Origin: Verrucomicrobiia bacterium
Lineage (GTDB): Bacteria > Verrucomicrobiota > Verrucomicrobiia > Limisphaerales > UBA1319
Direction of reading: 5' to 3'
DNA: 64,000 nt
Assembly: GCA_963664225.1 (NCBI GenBank)
Contig: OY760937.1
Span: forward strand, 4,064,001-4,128,000
The position numbers were made by a program, and so were the translations under genes. The notes under the pieces are model-generated. The model did not search any database. It saw nothing but the letters and a program-made list of their open reading frames with translations, and was not told the origin of the DNA. Below, piece after piece: positions 26,122 to 30,278 of the stretch; position 1 is the first letter of the stretch; the number at the start of each line of letters is the position of its first letter.

Positions 26122-27447
26122 ATGAAGGGATCGATCATTCACTGGCTTGCGGGGACGCGGGCCGGAGATTTGCTCGCGACACTCTGGCCGGCCAGTGTGG
26201 CGGGGGATTCGGAATTTCAGCGGCGCAGAAAGATCGCGGTCCGCAGCGCACAACTTGCCGCCCTTGCGTTGGTTGTCGTGGCCATCATTGGGGCGATTGC
26301 GAACAATTTCGATAACTTGTCTGGAGCGCGGCTGGCGGGGTTGGTCGTTTTTGGGTTCGCCTATACGGCGTGGAATATCATCGGCACCCGGGATATTGTT
26401 CGCGTGCTTCTGTGGGAACCGGACAGCACGCCACCGGTGGAGTTGTTGCAGGATGGAAAGGGCAGGGTCATTTTCTATTTTGCGGTTCAGCTCGGACTGG
26501 CGGGCCTGATCTATTCCTGCGTCGAGCCGAGCCTCAAACTGGGGCTGCTGTGGCTGGTGCTTCTGCCGCCCGTGGCGCACGGCGTCATACTGTTGCGCGC
26601 GCCGGGCATCGGCATCGTTGCCTCGGTGACCATGGGGATCTTTGGATTCTTCTTTGTGCGCTGGCACGGGTGGGAGTTGCTGCCCAACGCCCTGCTGGCC
26701 TTTGGATTTGCGGTGTTATTCACGCTGATTTTCACACTGCTAGCGGTCAGCTCTGAAACGGCGCGGGGGGAGGTGCAGCGGCTGGCGTGCGAGCTTTCGG
26801 ACGCCAATGGCAAGCTCCGTGAGTATGCCGTGCAGGCCGAGGAACTGGCGGTGACGCGCGAACGCAACCGGCTGGCGCGGGAAATTCACGATACGCTCGG
26901 CCATTACCTGACCGTGGTGAATGTGCAGATCGAGGCCGCGCGGGCCATGCTGGACCGCGATCCCGACAAGGTGCGCGACTCCCTCCAAAAGGCCCAGTCG
27001 CTCACCCAGGAAGGGCTGCAGGACATCCGGCGTTCGGTATCGTCGTTGCGGGCATCGCCATTGGATAACAAGAATCTGGTGGATGCGCTGAGGCAGGCTG
27101 TTGAGGCCGTGCGCACCAGTGGATTAAGTGCTGAATTGGAGTTAATTGGAAAATGCCGGACATTGTCGCGACCCGCGGAATTGACCCTGTATCGCGCCGC
27201 GCAGGAAGGACTGACCAATGTTCAGAAACATGCCCAGGCTGCGAGCGTGCGGCTGGTGTTGGATTTCAGCGACACGACGAGAACACGATTAACGGTAACG
27301 GACAATGGTGTGGGAAGTGTTGAAAAAACGGGGCATGGGTTTGGTCTGCTCGGACTGCGGGAACGGGCACACCTGGTGGGAGGCGCGTTGAAGATTCGCA
27401 CCGCTCCATCGGCGGGATTTGCGCTGGAAGTGGAGGTGCCGGGATGA
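26122..27447 (+). CDS. Membrane sensor histidine kinase (HisKA_3, DesK/NarX-like)
   Basis: Multiple TM helices; ERNRLAREIHDTLGH; QEGLTNVQKHA; DNGVG, GFGLLGLRER. Confidence 0.95.
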   Translation: MKGSIIHWLAGTRAGDLLATLWPASVAGDSEFQRRRKIAVRSAQLAALALVVVAIIGAIANNFDNLSGARLAGLVVFGFAYTAWNIIGTRDIVRVLLWEPDSTPPVELLQDGKGRVIFYFAVQLGLAGLIYSCVEPSLKLGLLWLVLLPPVAHGVILLRAPGIGIVASVTMGIFGFFFVRWHGWELLPNALLAFGFAVLFTLIFTLLAVSSETARGEVQRLACELSDANGKLREYAVQAEELAVTRERNRLAREIHDTLGHYLTVVNVQIEAARAMLDRDPDKVRDSLQKAQSLTQEGLQDIRRSVSSLRASPLDNKNLVDALRQAVEAVRTSGLSAELELIGKCRTLSRPAELTLYRAAQEGLTNVQKHAQAASVRLVLDFSDTTRTRLTVTDNGVGSVEKTGHGFGLLGLRERAHLVGGALKIRTAPSAGFALEVEVPG

Positions 27448-28097
27448 AGCCCATACGTGTCTTGCTAGTCGATGACCAAGTCTTGTTTCGGGAGGGGTTG
27501 AGAACACTGCTGTCGATTCATCCAGACATCCAAGTGGTGGGTGAGGCGGCCAATGGCGAGGAGGCTGTGCAAAGTGTAAAGGCGCTGCAGCCGAGGGTGG
27601 TATTGATGGATTTGCGGATGCCGGTGATGGGCGGGGTCGAGGCCACCCGGCGCGTTCGAGCCGTCGATGCCCATTGCCAAATCATCGTGCTGACCACGTT
27701 TGACGATGACGAGGATGTGTTCGATGCGTTGCGGGCCGGAGCGGCCGGATATTTGCTCAAGGACGGGCCGTCCGGAAAGCTGGTGGAAGCGATTCGGGCC
27801 ACGGCGCGGGGTGAATCGTTTTTGGAGCCGTCGATCACGGCCAAAGTGGTGGCGGAGTTCAACCGTCTTTCCAATAACCGGCGACCCGCGATCGCGCCGC
27901 TGGTGGAACCACTTTCGGAGCGCGAATGCGAGGTGCTGAGTCACCTTGCGCAAGGCAGGAGCAACAAGGAAATTGCGGTGGCTCTGGGATTGGCGGAGGG
28001 CACGGTCAAGAATCACATGACCAACATTCTGGGCAAGCTTGGGGTGCTGGACCGGACGCAGGCGGCGCTCAAGGCCAGGGAGTACGGACTTATTTAA
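27444..28097 (+). CDS. NarL/LuxR-family response regulator
   Basis: VDDQ..LMDLRMP receiver; LSERECEVL..SNKEIA..TVKNH HTH; ATGA overlap with the kinase. Confidence 0.96.
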   Translation: MKPIRVLLVDDQVLFREGLRTLLSIHPDIQVVGEAANGEEAVQSVKALQPRVVLMDLRMPVMGGVEATRRVRAVDAHCQIIVLTTFDDDEDVFDALRAGAAGYLLKDGPSGKLVEAIRATARGESFLEPSITAKVVAEFNRLSNNRRPAIAPLVEPLSERECEVLSHLAQGRSNKEIAVALGLAEGTVKNHMTNILGKLGVLDRTQAALKAREYGLI

Positions 28098-28259
28098 CCC
28101 GAAATCCGAAATAGGAACGGCCCATCTGACGCAACCATTTGGCCATCCATGGTTTGAAACCGGCTGTGGATTATTGATTTAATACACCCTCGCCGATTGC
28201 AAATCATGGCTGCCTCAAAGCATTGCATCATCTTGACCCTTCTTATTTCGGATTTCGGG
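28098..28259. mobile_element. 162-bp MITE (non-autonomous IS derivative)
   Basis: 20-bp TIR CCCGAAATCCGAAATAGGAA / TTCTTATTTCGGATTTCGGG (1 mismatch); 5-bp TSD TTTAA at 28093-28097 and, after removing the intron, 28260+30236-30239. Confidence 0.85.
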
Positions 28260-28260
28260 T

Positions 28261-30235
28261 GTGCGCCAGTGAAATTGGTAGCCTCGTGGGTGAAAGTCCC
28301 GCCGGTCGAATTAGACGGTTCACGACCGAAATGCAGCGTCCGGGACGAGGCCGTGAGGCCGAACCACAAGCGGGACGCTGAAAGAACTGTCGGGTCGTAA
28401 CGAAAGTAAACCTCATCAAATGAGCTCCGAAACCGAAATAACCGGTAAGCCGAGCCGCTACCCGAACGGCGAAGGCAGAAACGCGGCGTCATCAAATCGT
28501 CAAATGGGCGCTGTTGATTCCGGCGGAGTCAGCGAGGGCGACACGACAGGAAGGGAAACCAAGGTAAGCTGGGAGATCTCTGGAGGCGGGGCGATAAAGC
28601 CTCAACCGCCGGTGCAAGGAGGAACACCCTCCGAGGCCGCACGGGCAGCCAGAGAAGTCGGAGTCTTCCATAGTAGCGAAGAAGCTGGGGCGACCAAAAC
28701 CCCGGCGGAGCCAAGGGAAGGCACTTGGATCGAAGCGAATCAAAACAGCGAGGGACAGGGAGATGGCCTTGAGGGAGTGGAAACACTTTTTCAACGGATA
28801 ACAACCCCGATAAAAGTTCAAAAGCTGCAGCGAGCGCTATATTGCAAAGCCAAGGCTGAGCCGAAGTATCGGTTTTACAGCCTCTACGGAGAACTGCTGC
28901 GGAAGGACGTGCTGGAAACGGCAATGGCCTCCGTGGCGCACAACAATGGCGCGGCTGGGATCGACGGGCAGACATGCGACGTCTATCTTGCCAGCGACGA
29001 AGCCTGGGACCAATGGCGGAACCAACTGCTGGAGGAGTTACGCACGAAGAAGTATCGGCCAAGCCCGGTGAAGCGTGTGTATATACCAAAAGGAGACGGG
29101 AAGCTGCGACCCCTGGGCATCCCGACAGTGAAAGACCGGGTGGTGCAGACAGCGGTGGTGATTGTATTGCTGCCGATTCTGGAAGCCGATAGTCATCCGA
29201 ACAGTTACGCCTATCATCCCAAACGCAATGCCCACCAAGCAATGGAGGCGATCAAGAAGGCTACGCTGACAGGACGCGTCGAAGTTATAGACGCGGACTT
29301 AAGCGGGTATTTTGACAGCATTCCCCACAGGCGTTTGTTGCGCATAGTGGCCAAGCGGGTCAGCGATGGAACAATTCTCAAGCTGATCGCAGGATGGCTG
29401 CGCGCGCCCGTGAATGAACCGCAAAGCGACACAGGGAAAGGCGGGACAAAGGGGGGGCAAGGTCAGAATCGACGGGGGACTCCGCAAGGCGGGGTTGTAT
29501 CGCCGATTTTAGCCAATGCATACCTCAACCAGTTGGATTGGGAAGTCAACGAACGCTGCGAACTCAAACCCGTGATGGTGAGATACGCGGATGATTTCGT
29601 GATACTCGGACAGCCGGGGCAGGGACGGGAACTGATGGAACGACTGGAACGATGGCTGAAGCAACGCGAGTTAGTGCTCAACGAGAAGAAGACCCGCTTG
29701 GTGGACCTCCGCCAGGATGGCATCAAATTCTTGGGATTCGCGCTAACAATGCGACAGGGGAAGGGGAAATGGAAATATCCGCATGTGGAACCCCATCCCA
29801 AGAGCCAGAAGAAGTTTCGAGACGGGATTCGGGAGAAACTCAACCGAAGCACGCTATGGCGTGATATCGGAGAGGTGATTCCCGAGCTCAACAAGAAACT
29901 CAAAGGTTGGAAGGGTTACTTTCACTACGGGAACAGCACCAAGGTGATGGGCCAGATGAACGAATACGTCAGCAGCAAGTTACAACGATGGTTGTGGCGC
30001 AAACACGGATGTAGTCGGGCGCAATGGTCCACATACCCCAAGGAGGATCTCTATGAGCGTTATGGTTTATACCAAATGCCGGAATATGCGGCATGGAAAC
30101 GATGACGTCGAAGCGATGCAACGTATGATCCCCGGAGAGCCGGATGCGGGAAAACCGCCTGTCCGGTTCGATGAGGGGCGAAATGCGACGGTCATTGGCC
30201 ACGGCCATTCAATCCGTCCATTTCGCCTACTCTAC
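28261..30235 (+). mobile_element. Group II intron (complete ribozyme plus intron-encoded protein)
   Basis: 5' GTGCG; domain V GAGAGCCGGATGCGGGAAAACCGCCTGTCCGGTTC near 30135-30169; domain VI ending CCTACTCTAC; EBS1 ACCCGAA at 28460-28466 pairs with the 5' exon. Confidence 0.95.
28777..30105 (+). CDS. ltrA: Group II intron reverse transcriptase/maturase (RT-X, no endonuclease domain)
   Basis: GAAGIDG, RPLGIPTVKDR, DADLSGYFD, GTPQGGVVSP, RYADDF, GWKGYF; start codon inferred (GTG). Confidence 0.93.
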   Translation: METLFQRITTPIKVQKLQRALYCKAKAEPKYRFYSLYGELLRKDVLETAMASVAHNNGAAGIDGQTCDVYLASDEAWDQWRNQLLEELRTKKYRPSPVKRVYIPKGDGKLRPLGIPTVKDRVVQTAVVIVLLPILEADSHPNSYAYHPKRNAHQAMEAIKKATLTGRVEVIDADLSGYFDSIPHRRLLRIVAKRVSDGTILKLIAGWLRAPVNEPQSDTGKGGTKGGQGQNRRGTPQGGVVSPILANAYLNQLDWEVNERCELKPVMVRYADDFVILGQPGQGRELMERLERWLKQRELVLNEKKTRLVDLRQDGIKFLGFALTMRQGKGKWKYPHVEPHPKSQKKFRDGIREKLNRSTLWRDIGEVIPELNKKLKGWKGYFHYGNSTKVMGQMNEYVSSKLQRWLWRKHGCSRAQWSTYPKEDLYERYGLYQMPEYAAWKR

Positions 30236-30278
30236 TTAACGGAGGTTGCCGAGGTCATGGGATGCACATGACCACAAG

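Follow-up and report, generated by a model that had tools for sequence, protein, structure and literature searches.

A group II intron at the inverted repeat and target-duplication junction of IS1380-family elements in a Verrucomicrobiia bacterium

We analyzed a stretch of 64,000 nucleotides (hereafter the window) comprising positions 4,064,001-4,128,000 of the single 5.78-Mb contig OY760937.1 (assembly GCA_963664225.1, Verrucomicrobiia bacterium), in which a 1975-nt group II intron adjoins a miniature inverted-repeat transposable element (MITE). This is very probably an active or very recently active intron that, with an encoded protein lacking an endonuclease domain, uses RNA-DNA base pairing to home to the point at which the terminal inverted repeat (TIR) of IS1380-family elements meets their target-site duplication, the elements being a 1532-bp insertion sequence (IS) and a set of related 162-bp MITEs. 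The evidence observed directly consists of the insertion sites, the pairing between intron and exon, its co-variation in related introns and a strand asymmetry among the copies. The association of the intron with the flank of the TIR is far beyond chance.

The intron in the window begins with GTGCG and ends with CTAC, as read from the sequence, and thus fits the group II requirement for 5' GUGYG and 3' AY. Its 5' part matched Rfam RF02005 over 28293-28538 with 54.9 bits (gathering threshold 49), and domains V and VI matched RF00029 over 30135-30235 with 49.3 bits (gathering threshold 40); the Rfam alignment shows domain V to be 33-34 nt, near full length, with an AGC triad. The adjoining MITE has a left TIR of CCCGAAATCCGAAATAGGAA (28098-28117) and a right TIR at 28240-28259, the reverse complement of which is CCCGAAATCCGAAATAAGAA, with 19 of the 20 positions matching. 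The right target duplication is split by the intron into T (28260) and TTAA (30236-30239). The coordinates of the intron, the MITE, the TIRs and the TTTAA duplications that had been proposed in an earlier inspection of the letters by themselves (the sequence-only reading) were all confirmed in the sequence (Table 1).

Table 1 Features of the intron insertion and its surroundings in the window.
Feature	Position	Strand	Basis
Left target-site duplication, TTTAA	28093..28097	.	sequence
MITE, 162 bp, 20-bp TIRs, near full-length palindrome	28098..28259	.	18 full-length genome copies; DNA fold
IBS2 (TTATTTCGG), inside right TIR	28243..28251	+	perfect complement of 28433-28441
IBS1 (TTCGGGT), six TIR bases and T of target duplication	28254..28260	+	identical in 19/19 copies
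Group II intron, 1975 nt	28261..30235	+	Rfam RF02005 and RF00029; 19 genome copies, all identical (blastn, exact matching)
EBS2 (CCGAAAUAA), unpaired stretch of domain I	28433..28441	+	RF02005 alignment
EBS1 (ACCCGAA), domain I hairpin loop	28460..28466	+	RF02005 alignment; co-variation
Intron-encoded protein, 442 aa, reverse transcriptase and maturase (X) domains	28777..30105	+	Pfam RVT_1 and GIIM; TIGR04416
Domain V with AGC triad, followed by domain VI up to the intron 3' end	30137..30169	+	RF00029 alignment
Remainder of right target duplication, TTAA; T at 30236 is the presumed IBS3	30236..30239	.	+1 is T in 19/19 copies
LuxR-type response regulator gene (context only)	27444..28097	+	Pfam Response_reg and GerE

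Nineteen copies of the intron, all 100% identical by blastn, were found in the genome, 13 on the plus strand and 6 on the minus strand by exact string matching. Copies at sites unrelated to the TIR had been named beforehand as the observation that would refute targeting of this TIR; we found none, and all 19 lie one base outside a TIR or TIR-like end reading ...CGGA[T/G]TTCGGG, splitting the duplication as T|T(T/A)AA. The 5' exon accordingly ends in CGGA[T/G]TTCGGGT in every copy, and the 3' exon starts with TTAA or TAAA. Thirteen copies are at MITE ends, four are at ends of the 1532-bp IS, and two are at isolated TIR-like stretches without a recognizable element (12 bases at 2,065,438 and 15-16 bases at 3,974,267). 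Occupied elements thus include 13 of the 18 full-length MITEs and four of the five IS copies, in three of which the intron is at one IS end and in the fourth at the other; no element is occupied at both ends. After removal of the intron in silico, 17 of the 18 full-length MITEs have the same 5 bp as a direct repeat on both sides, in most cases TTAAA or TTTAA; the eighteenth (5,610,956) has ATTAA on one side and TTAAA on the other. The intron came later than the element, for it interrupts the 5-bp duplication, and the repeat reappears once the intron is taken out. Among the 18 MITEs there are 13 different sequences, with pairwise identities of 91.4-100% (median 96.9%), and since the introns are identical, the intron burst is much younger than the spread of the MITEs and exploited a repeat family that was already dispersed. 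The T at position -1 comes from the duplication and not from the element, because elements with the duplication TTTAT or TTGAG read A or C as the outward base at one end.

The exon-binding sites (EBS) of the intron and the intron-binding sites (IBS) of the exon are complementary at every position in the window. ACCCGAA (EBS1) at 28460-28466 is the exact complement of the seven exon bases 28254-28260, and CCGAAATAA (EBS2) at 28433-28441 is the exact complement of the nine exon bases 28243-28251, TTATTTCGG; in the RF02005 alignment, CCGAAAUAA lies between two domain I helices. An energy-only fold also placed ACCCGAA in a hairpin loop, with a z-score of -0.69, no better than shuffled sequences. 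To the window intron we aligned ten related introns with 5' flanks, gathered from genomes of the same order, other genome contigs and metagenome contigs; the encoded proteins are 67-84% identical, and one member (L006) has no open reading frame (ORF). Across this alignment, 97.4% of the cells for the seven EBS1-IBS1 pairs are paired, and five of the seven pairs are changed on both sides, as in ACCTGAA/TTCAGGT, CCACGGA/TCCGTGG, GCGTCAA/TTGACGC and GCCGTAA/TTACGGC. With the EBS1 and EBS2 helices counted together, none of 500 shuffles reached the observed co-variation score, and sliding the partner by 1-3 columns reduced pairing from the observed 75% to 31-42%. The EBS2 segment is hypervariable in close relatives and its flanks are conserved; the four EBS2-IBS2 pairs proximal to the splice site are mostly kept and co-vary. 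Of the EBS1 and EBS2 placements in domain I offered by the sequence-only reading, EBS1 and the proximal part of EBS2 are therefore borne out by the RF02005 alignment and by co-variation in ten introns, and the distal part of EBS2 finds no support in the relatives. Within the genome, sites with 4-7 EBS2 pairs are occupied.

The host elements are of the IS1380 family, as had been surmised from the CC ends and the 5-bp duplication. The IS is 1532 bp long and present in five identical copies, with a single 473-aa ORF, CCC ends and 5-bp duplications of TTTAA or TTAAA; its transposase passes the IS1380-family model NF033539 (227 bits; NCBIfam cut-off 180) and matches PF13701 (95.7 bits). Members of this family are about 1.5-2 kb long with a single ORF, inverted repeats starting with CC and a 4-5 bp duplication, and the IS fits this description in size, ORF count, ends and duplication. 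Of the first 12 bases of the IS ends, CCCGAACTCCGA, 11 are the same as in the MITE TIR; the one that differs corresponds to exon position -8, which belongs to the linker separating IBS1 from IBS2. The MITE, being short, non-coding and multicopy with IS-like TIRs and a 5-bp TTWAA duplication, is as expected of an IS-derived MITE. A loose TIR search allowing 3 mismatches returned 850 mostly spurious matches, and stricter patterns were used instead; with these, no autonomous IS having exactly the TIR of the MITE was found in the genome, so that the autonomous partner foreseen by the sequence-only reading was recovered as to family and not as to its exact ends. Two IS copies are inserted in the same internal TTTAA of a MITE (828,002-831,675 and 2,984,655-2,988,328) in opposite genome orientation; in these composites the introns are at opposite IS ends and on the plus strand in both. 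Co-mobilization of IS and intron as one unit was considered and is not supported, the duplications flanking the IS alone. A further MITE copy, at 264,554-266,580, is interrupted by ~1.86 kb of inserted DNA distinct from both the 1532-bp IS and the intron.

The frame of the intron-encoded protein (IEP) is open over 28420-30105, with a GTG at 28777 as the proposed start. The IEP contains YADD, scored 356 bits against TIGR04416 (NCBIfam cut-off 300), and ends ~25 aa after the GIIM match; no endonuclease (D/En) domain was detected, Pfam giving RVT_1 and GIIM only (E <= 0.001). The best named plasmid matches were ~40% identical (tblastn). A regular-expression search for the class D C-terminal motif LX3AX3PXLF[V/A]HW found no match in the IEP, which terminates in ...YERYGLYQMPEYAAWKR; as the motif is lacking, the intron is not filed as class D. 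Class C (IIC) introns have a shortened domain V. The intron is not of that class, since it has an EBS2 and a near full-length domain V and uses targets without a partner arm; the distinction from class C already drawn on the AGC triad and domain V holds.

The copies fall into strand blocks: five on the plus strand at 0.045-0.95 Mb, six on the minus strand at 1.66-2.19 Mb and eight on the plus strand at 2.99-5.61 Mb, and the six minus copies would fall together on the circle by chance with a probability of 7e-4. From 3.7 Mb across coordinate 0 as far as 1.3 Mb, both GC skew and skewed octamers are positive, and the sign changes near 1.3 Mb; dnaA is on the minus strand at 2.9906-2.9911 Mb; and the two strongest DnaA-box clusters are at 2,892,523 and 783,097. 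One of the two intervals in which the intron strand switches holds the skew sign change at ~1.3 Mb, and the other ends 4 kb from dnaA and holds a DnaA-box cluster. As the leading strand is usually G-rich, the target strand would correspond to the lagging-strand template. We then counted every site reading CGGA[TG]TTCGGG with T at -1 and +1, taking the terminus at 1.3 Mb, which gave 52 scorable sites; for these counts, skew, dnaA and DnaA boxes were the sole guides to origin and terminus. An origin at 2.89 Mb gives occupancy of 19 of 27 lagging-template sites and 0 of 25 leading-template sites (p = 3e-8); an origin immediately upstream of dnaA gives the conservative count of 18 of 27 vs 1 of 25 (p = 2e-6). 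The left TIR in the window, correctly described from the outset as an unoccupied matching site, is thus probably empty because of a strand rule, by which only lagging-template sites would be used, and not by chance. The position of dnaA at 2.99 Mb together with the odd skew implies very unequal replichores or recent rearrangements.

In the homing reaction that we favor, EBS1 would pair with the last six TIR bases and the first T of the duplication, EBS2 would pair with TIR bases -10 to -18, and the +1 T would be the next base of the duplication. The transposase probably prefers TTWAA, so that each element end would read ...GGG-T|T outward and each element would offer one site per DNA strand, of which only the site on the lagging-strand template would be used. 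By analogy with the introns RmInt1 and RmInt2, complementary DNA (cDNA) synthesis would be primed from nascent strands at replication forks, and the intron may still be mobile today. As its place is outside the TIR, the intron leaves the sequence of both TIRs and of the transposase gene intact, and from this position it would be neutral for its host element; the supply of sites might then be called self-renewing, which we only infer, given that the introns are identical while the MITEs have diverged.

Several observations weigh against this account. Regarding expression, a promoter scan found no σ70-like promoter in the MITE to drive the intron, and contigs from four runs (contigs only) showed neither a joint across the intron nor an empty site in a sister strain. 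Regarding recognition, the distal EBS2-IBS2 pairs, all formed in the window, are not kept in the 10 relatives, and the IS ends and two other occupied sites are mismatched in this distal pairing. Regarding replication, the skew is flat over ~1.7-3.6 Mb and the origin was located by neither GC nor octamer skew; a DnaA-box cluster at 0.78 Mb is as strong as that at 2.89 Mb, which was chosen after the intron pattern had been seen; the copy at 2,986,270 is on the "wrong" strand if the origin is just upstream of dnaA; and eight matching lagging-template sites are empty.

Passive carriage of the intron, in a composite that the IS1380 transposase would move (one-ended transposition with capture of flanking DNA being one way), would account for the intron always abutting an element end, and IS1380-family elements such as ISEcp1 mobilize adjacent DNA. 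The duplications, however, enclose only the element and are interrupted by the intron, and in 0 of the 19 copies do they enclose element plus intron; identical introns lie beside MITEs differing by up to 8.6%; and introns are found at either end of both MITE and IS as well as at two sites without a full element. Since carriage would also leave the EBS-IBS complementarity and its co-variation unexplained, we regard it as having hardly any likelihood. Only slightly more credible, and still very improbable, is targeting by DNA shape, in which the intron would recognize the palindromic MITE hairpin in single-stranded DNA and insert 3' of the stem as class C introns do. The MITE does fold as DNA into an almost full-length hairpin (z = -5.97), the intron is one base after the 3' arm, and the introns labeled L107, L028 and in part L104 also follow a palindromic element. 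However, four of the five copies of the 1.5-kb IS are occupied although their ends are far apart, two occupied sites have only 12-16 TIR bases and no partner arm, and no partner arm is present in three of the six relatives with at least 150 bases of flank. The 7-bp EBS1 and the EBS2 are present and co-varying, and domain V, near full length with its AGC triad, likewise speaks against class C-like behavior.

The homing account is also to be weighed against causes other than replication forks for the strand blocks, such as transcription direction, selection on orientation, or a large inversion after a strand-biased burst. The loosely mapped origin and the flat skew at 1.7-3.6 Mb leave room for these, and a second intron family in the same genome (four copies) has no block pattern. 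Yet gene-strand bias is weak (the plus-strand fraction of long ORFs is ~0.3-0.7 per 100 kb) and cannot give 19 of 19 copies in three clean blocks; the landmarks of replication described above, namely the skew sign change in one switch interval and dnaA 4 kb from the end of the other with its DnaA-box cluster, fall in or beside the switch intervals; and a lagging-template bias has been demonstrated experimentally for the endonuclease-less introns RmInt1 and RmInt2 (PMC4615759). We therefore consider a non-fork cause unlikely.

Beyond this genome, metagenomes contain many homologous IEPs, 68-96% identical and for the most part on contigs of ~2 kb, and one metagenome contig holds the intron itself with 7 differences in 1911 nt. 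Taxonomic labels are unreliable for short contigs from metagenome-assembled genomes. Among the ten relatives with flanks, eight have GG at -3/-2 and a ninth, L028, has GG at -2/-1; seven share the exon motif AACYGC..TTTYMAGGT (reverse complement ACCTGAAAAC.GCAGTT), and in all six with a known 3' exon this exon starts with T. The ends beside which these relatives lie resemble those in the window in being of the form CC...GG. In L107 and L028 the intron is at the end of a short palindromic MITE-like element, in L104 partly so; a partner arm was not found in the available flank of L027, L112 and L109. Elements with an IS1380-family transposase occur in 26 of 120 other genomes of the same order, several of them with ends such as CCTAGAAACGGCAGTT (L206, duplication TTCAC), CCTGAAAAATGCA (L201, duplication TTGAA) and CCTGAATTATGCACA (L203). 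These ends match the exon motif of the relatives and their T|TGAA and T|TCAA flanks; none of the L206, L201 and L203 IS copies was seen with an intron. Taken at the level of sequence, the matches support, and do not prove, the view that the whole intron clade would target IS1380-family ends.

A wider proposal, toward which we incline with some reserve, is that an entire environmental clade of endonuclease-less introns (IEPs 67-84% identical) has specialized on the TIR/target-duplication junction of IS1380-family elements and MITEs. EBS1 would have been re-tuned to the terminal bases of each TIR, and the T's at -1 and +1 would derive from a TTNAA preference of the transposase, so that a homing site would exist only after transposition and the TIRs and transposase gene would be left intact. 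The orientation of recent copies would then record replication direction and could map the origin where skew is uninformative.

Some further structures were seen among the related introns. In the metagenome contigs L103 (114/115 and 2082/2083) and L105 (1473/1474), two intron ends are joined head to tail, a 3' end (...CTACTCTAC) running directly into a 5' end (GTGCGCC); such junctions may stem from a tandem insertion, from an intron circle or from the assembly having cycled through a repeat. The ORF-less relative noted above (L006, 1308-2002; genome G034, contig C102) is ~700 nt long with ribozyme parts 71-84% identical, and its EBS1, GCCGTAA, matches its own exon, TTACGGC; this intron adjoins a long palindromic sequence. 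Palindromic repeats of ~70 nt made of tandem CACGGATG units occur in different metagenomes, at L112 127-197 and L028 1906-1980; the repeat is unoccupied in L112, and in L028 the intron is exactly at its end.

The second group II intron family in the genome is ~1970 nt long with four copies (1,677,061; 2,330,929; 5,161,940; and 5,605,569). Its IEP is ~42% identical to that in the window, its copies lie at unrelated flanks, which have ...TCTTTGAG.TCT in common, and its strands show no block pattern; a fifth, more distant reverse transcriptase match is at 2,134,896. In the window, MITE and intron are directly behind the response regulator gene on the same strand, and the TAA stop codon of this gene (28095-28097) falls inside the left target duplication of the MITE. 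Judged from this arrangement, the intron could be transcribed by read-through from the response regulator operon.

With 19 identical insertions and 52 scorable matching sites, the genome constitutes a natural experiment on group II intron targeting, in which the strand rule is all-or-none under one placement of the origin and has a single exception under the other, and in which a transposon end and its duplication together make up the target site. In a genome whose skew is poor, the orientation of the copies also offers an independent clue to the direction of replication. The relatives suggest that a transposon-end habit is common to a widespread intron clade. Practical gains are modest: the short, defined target and the tolerance of EBS2 mismatches could inform the design of targetrons without an endonuclease.

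Homing to transposon ends by base pairing is not new, having a precedent in print in RmInt2 and ISRm17, and the present case extends this strategy to another intron lineage and another IS family; literature searches did not find an intron at the IS1380 TIR/duplication junction in published work. RmInt2 of Sinorhizobium meliloti GR4 is a class D, IIB intron without an endonuclease, all seven identical copies of which are in inverted repeats of ISRm17 (PMC4615759, Martinez-Rodriguez et al. 2014); the two repeats of ISRm17 present sites on opposite replication strands, one of which is always the lagging-strand template, and EBS2 mismatches are tolerated (PMC4615759; also PMC5894124). The intron described here shares with RmInt2 the lack of an endonuclease domain, identical copies all at IS inverted repeats, one site per replication strand, a lagging-template bias (apparent in the present intron) and the tolerance of EBS2 mismatches. 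It differs in having an IEP without the class D C-terminal motif (442 aa vs 419 aa for RmInt2), in its hosts, an IS1380-family IS and MITEs rather than ISRm17, and in copy number (19 vs 7); and whereas RmInt2 is described as being "within" the inverted repeats (PMC4615759), the intron here is one base outside them, in the duplication, which leaves the ends of the element intact.

The site of RmInt1 of S. meliloti is inside ISRm2011-2, of the IS630 family, and its insertion was reported to block the spread of that IS (PMC5894124). Common to RmInt1 and our intron are the absence of an endonuclease domain, a multicopy IS as the natural homing site, a lagging-template bias (apparent in the present intron) and recognition through EBS1, EBS2 and EBS3; unlike RmInt1, which is inside its IS (PMC5894124), the intron here is outside the element. 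Class C introns insert after terminator or attC hairpins (Zimmerly and Semper 2015, PMC4424553) and are without EBS2 and part of EBS1 (PMC3753933). Our intron resembles them in having no endonuclease domain and in inserting just 3' of a potential hairpin sequence (PMC4424553), but, unlike them, it has an EBS1 and an EBS2, its domain V is near full length, and its targets are sequence-specific and work in the absence of a partner arm. Set beside these systems, the present intron is distinguished, modestly, by its insertion into the duplication just outside the TIR and by the probable extension of this habit to its clade.

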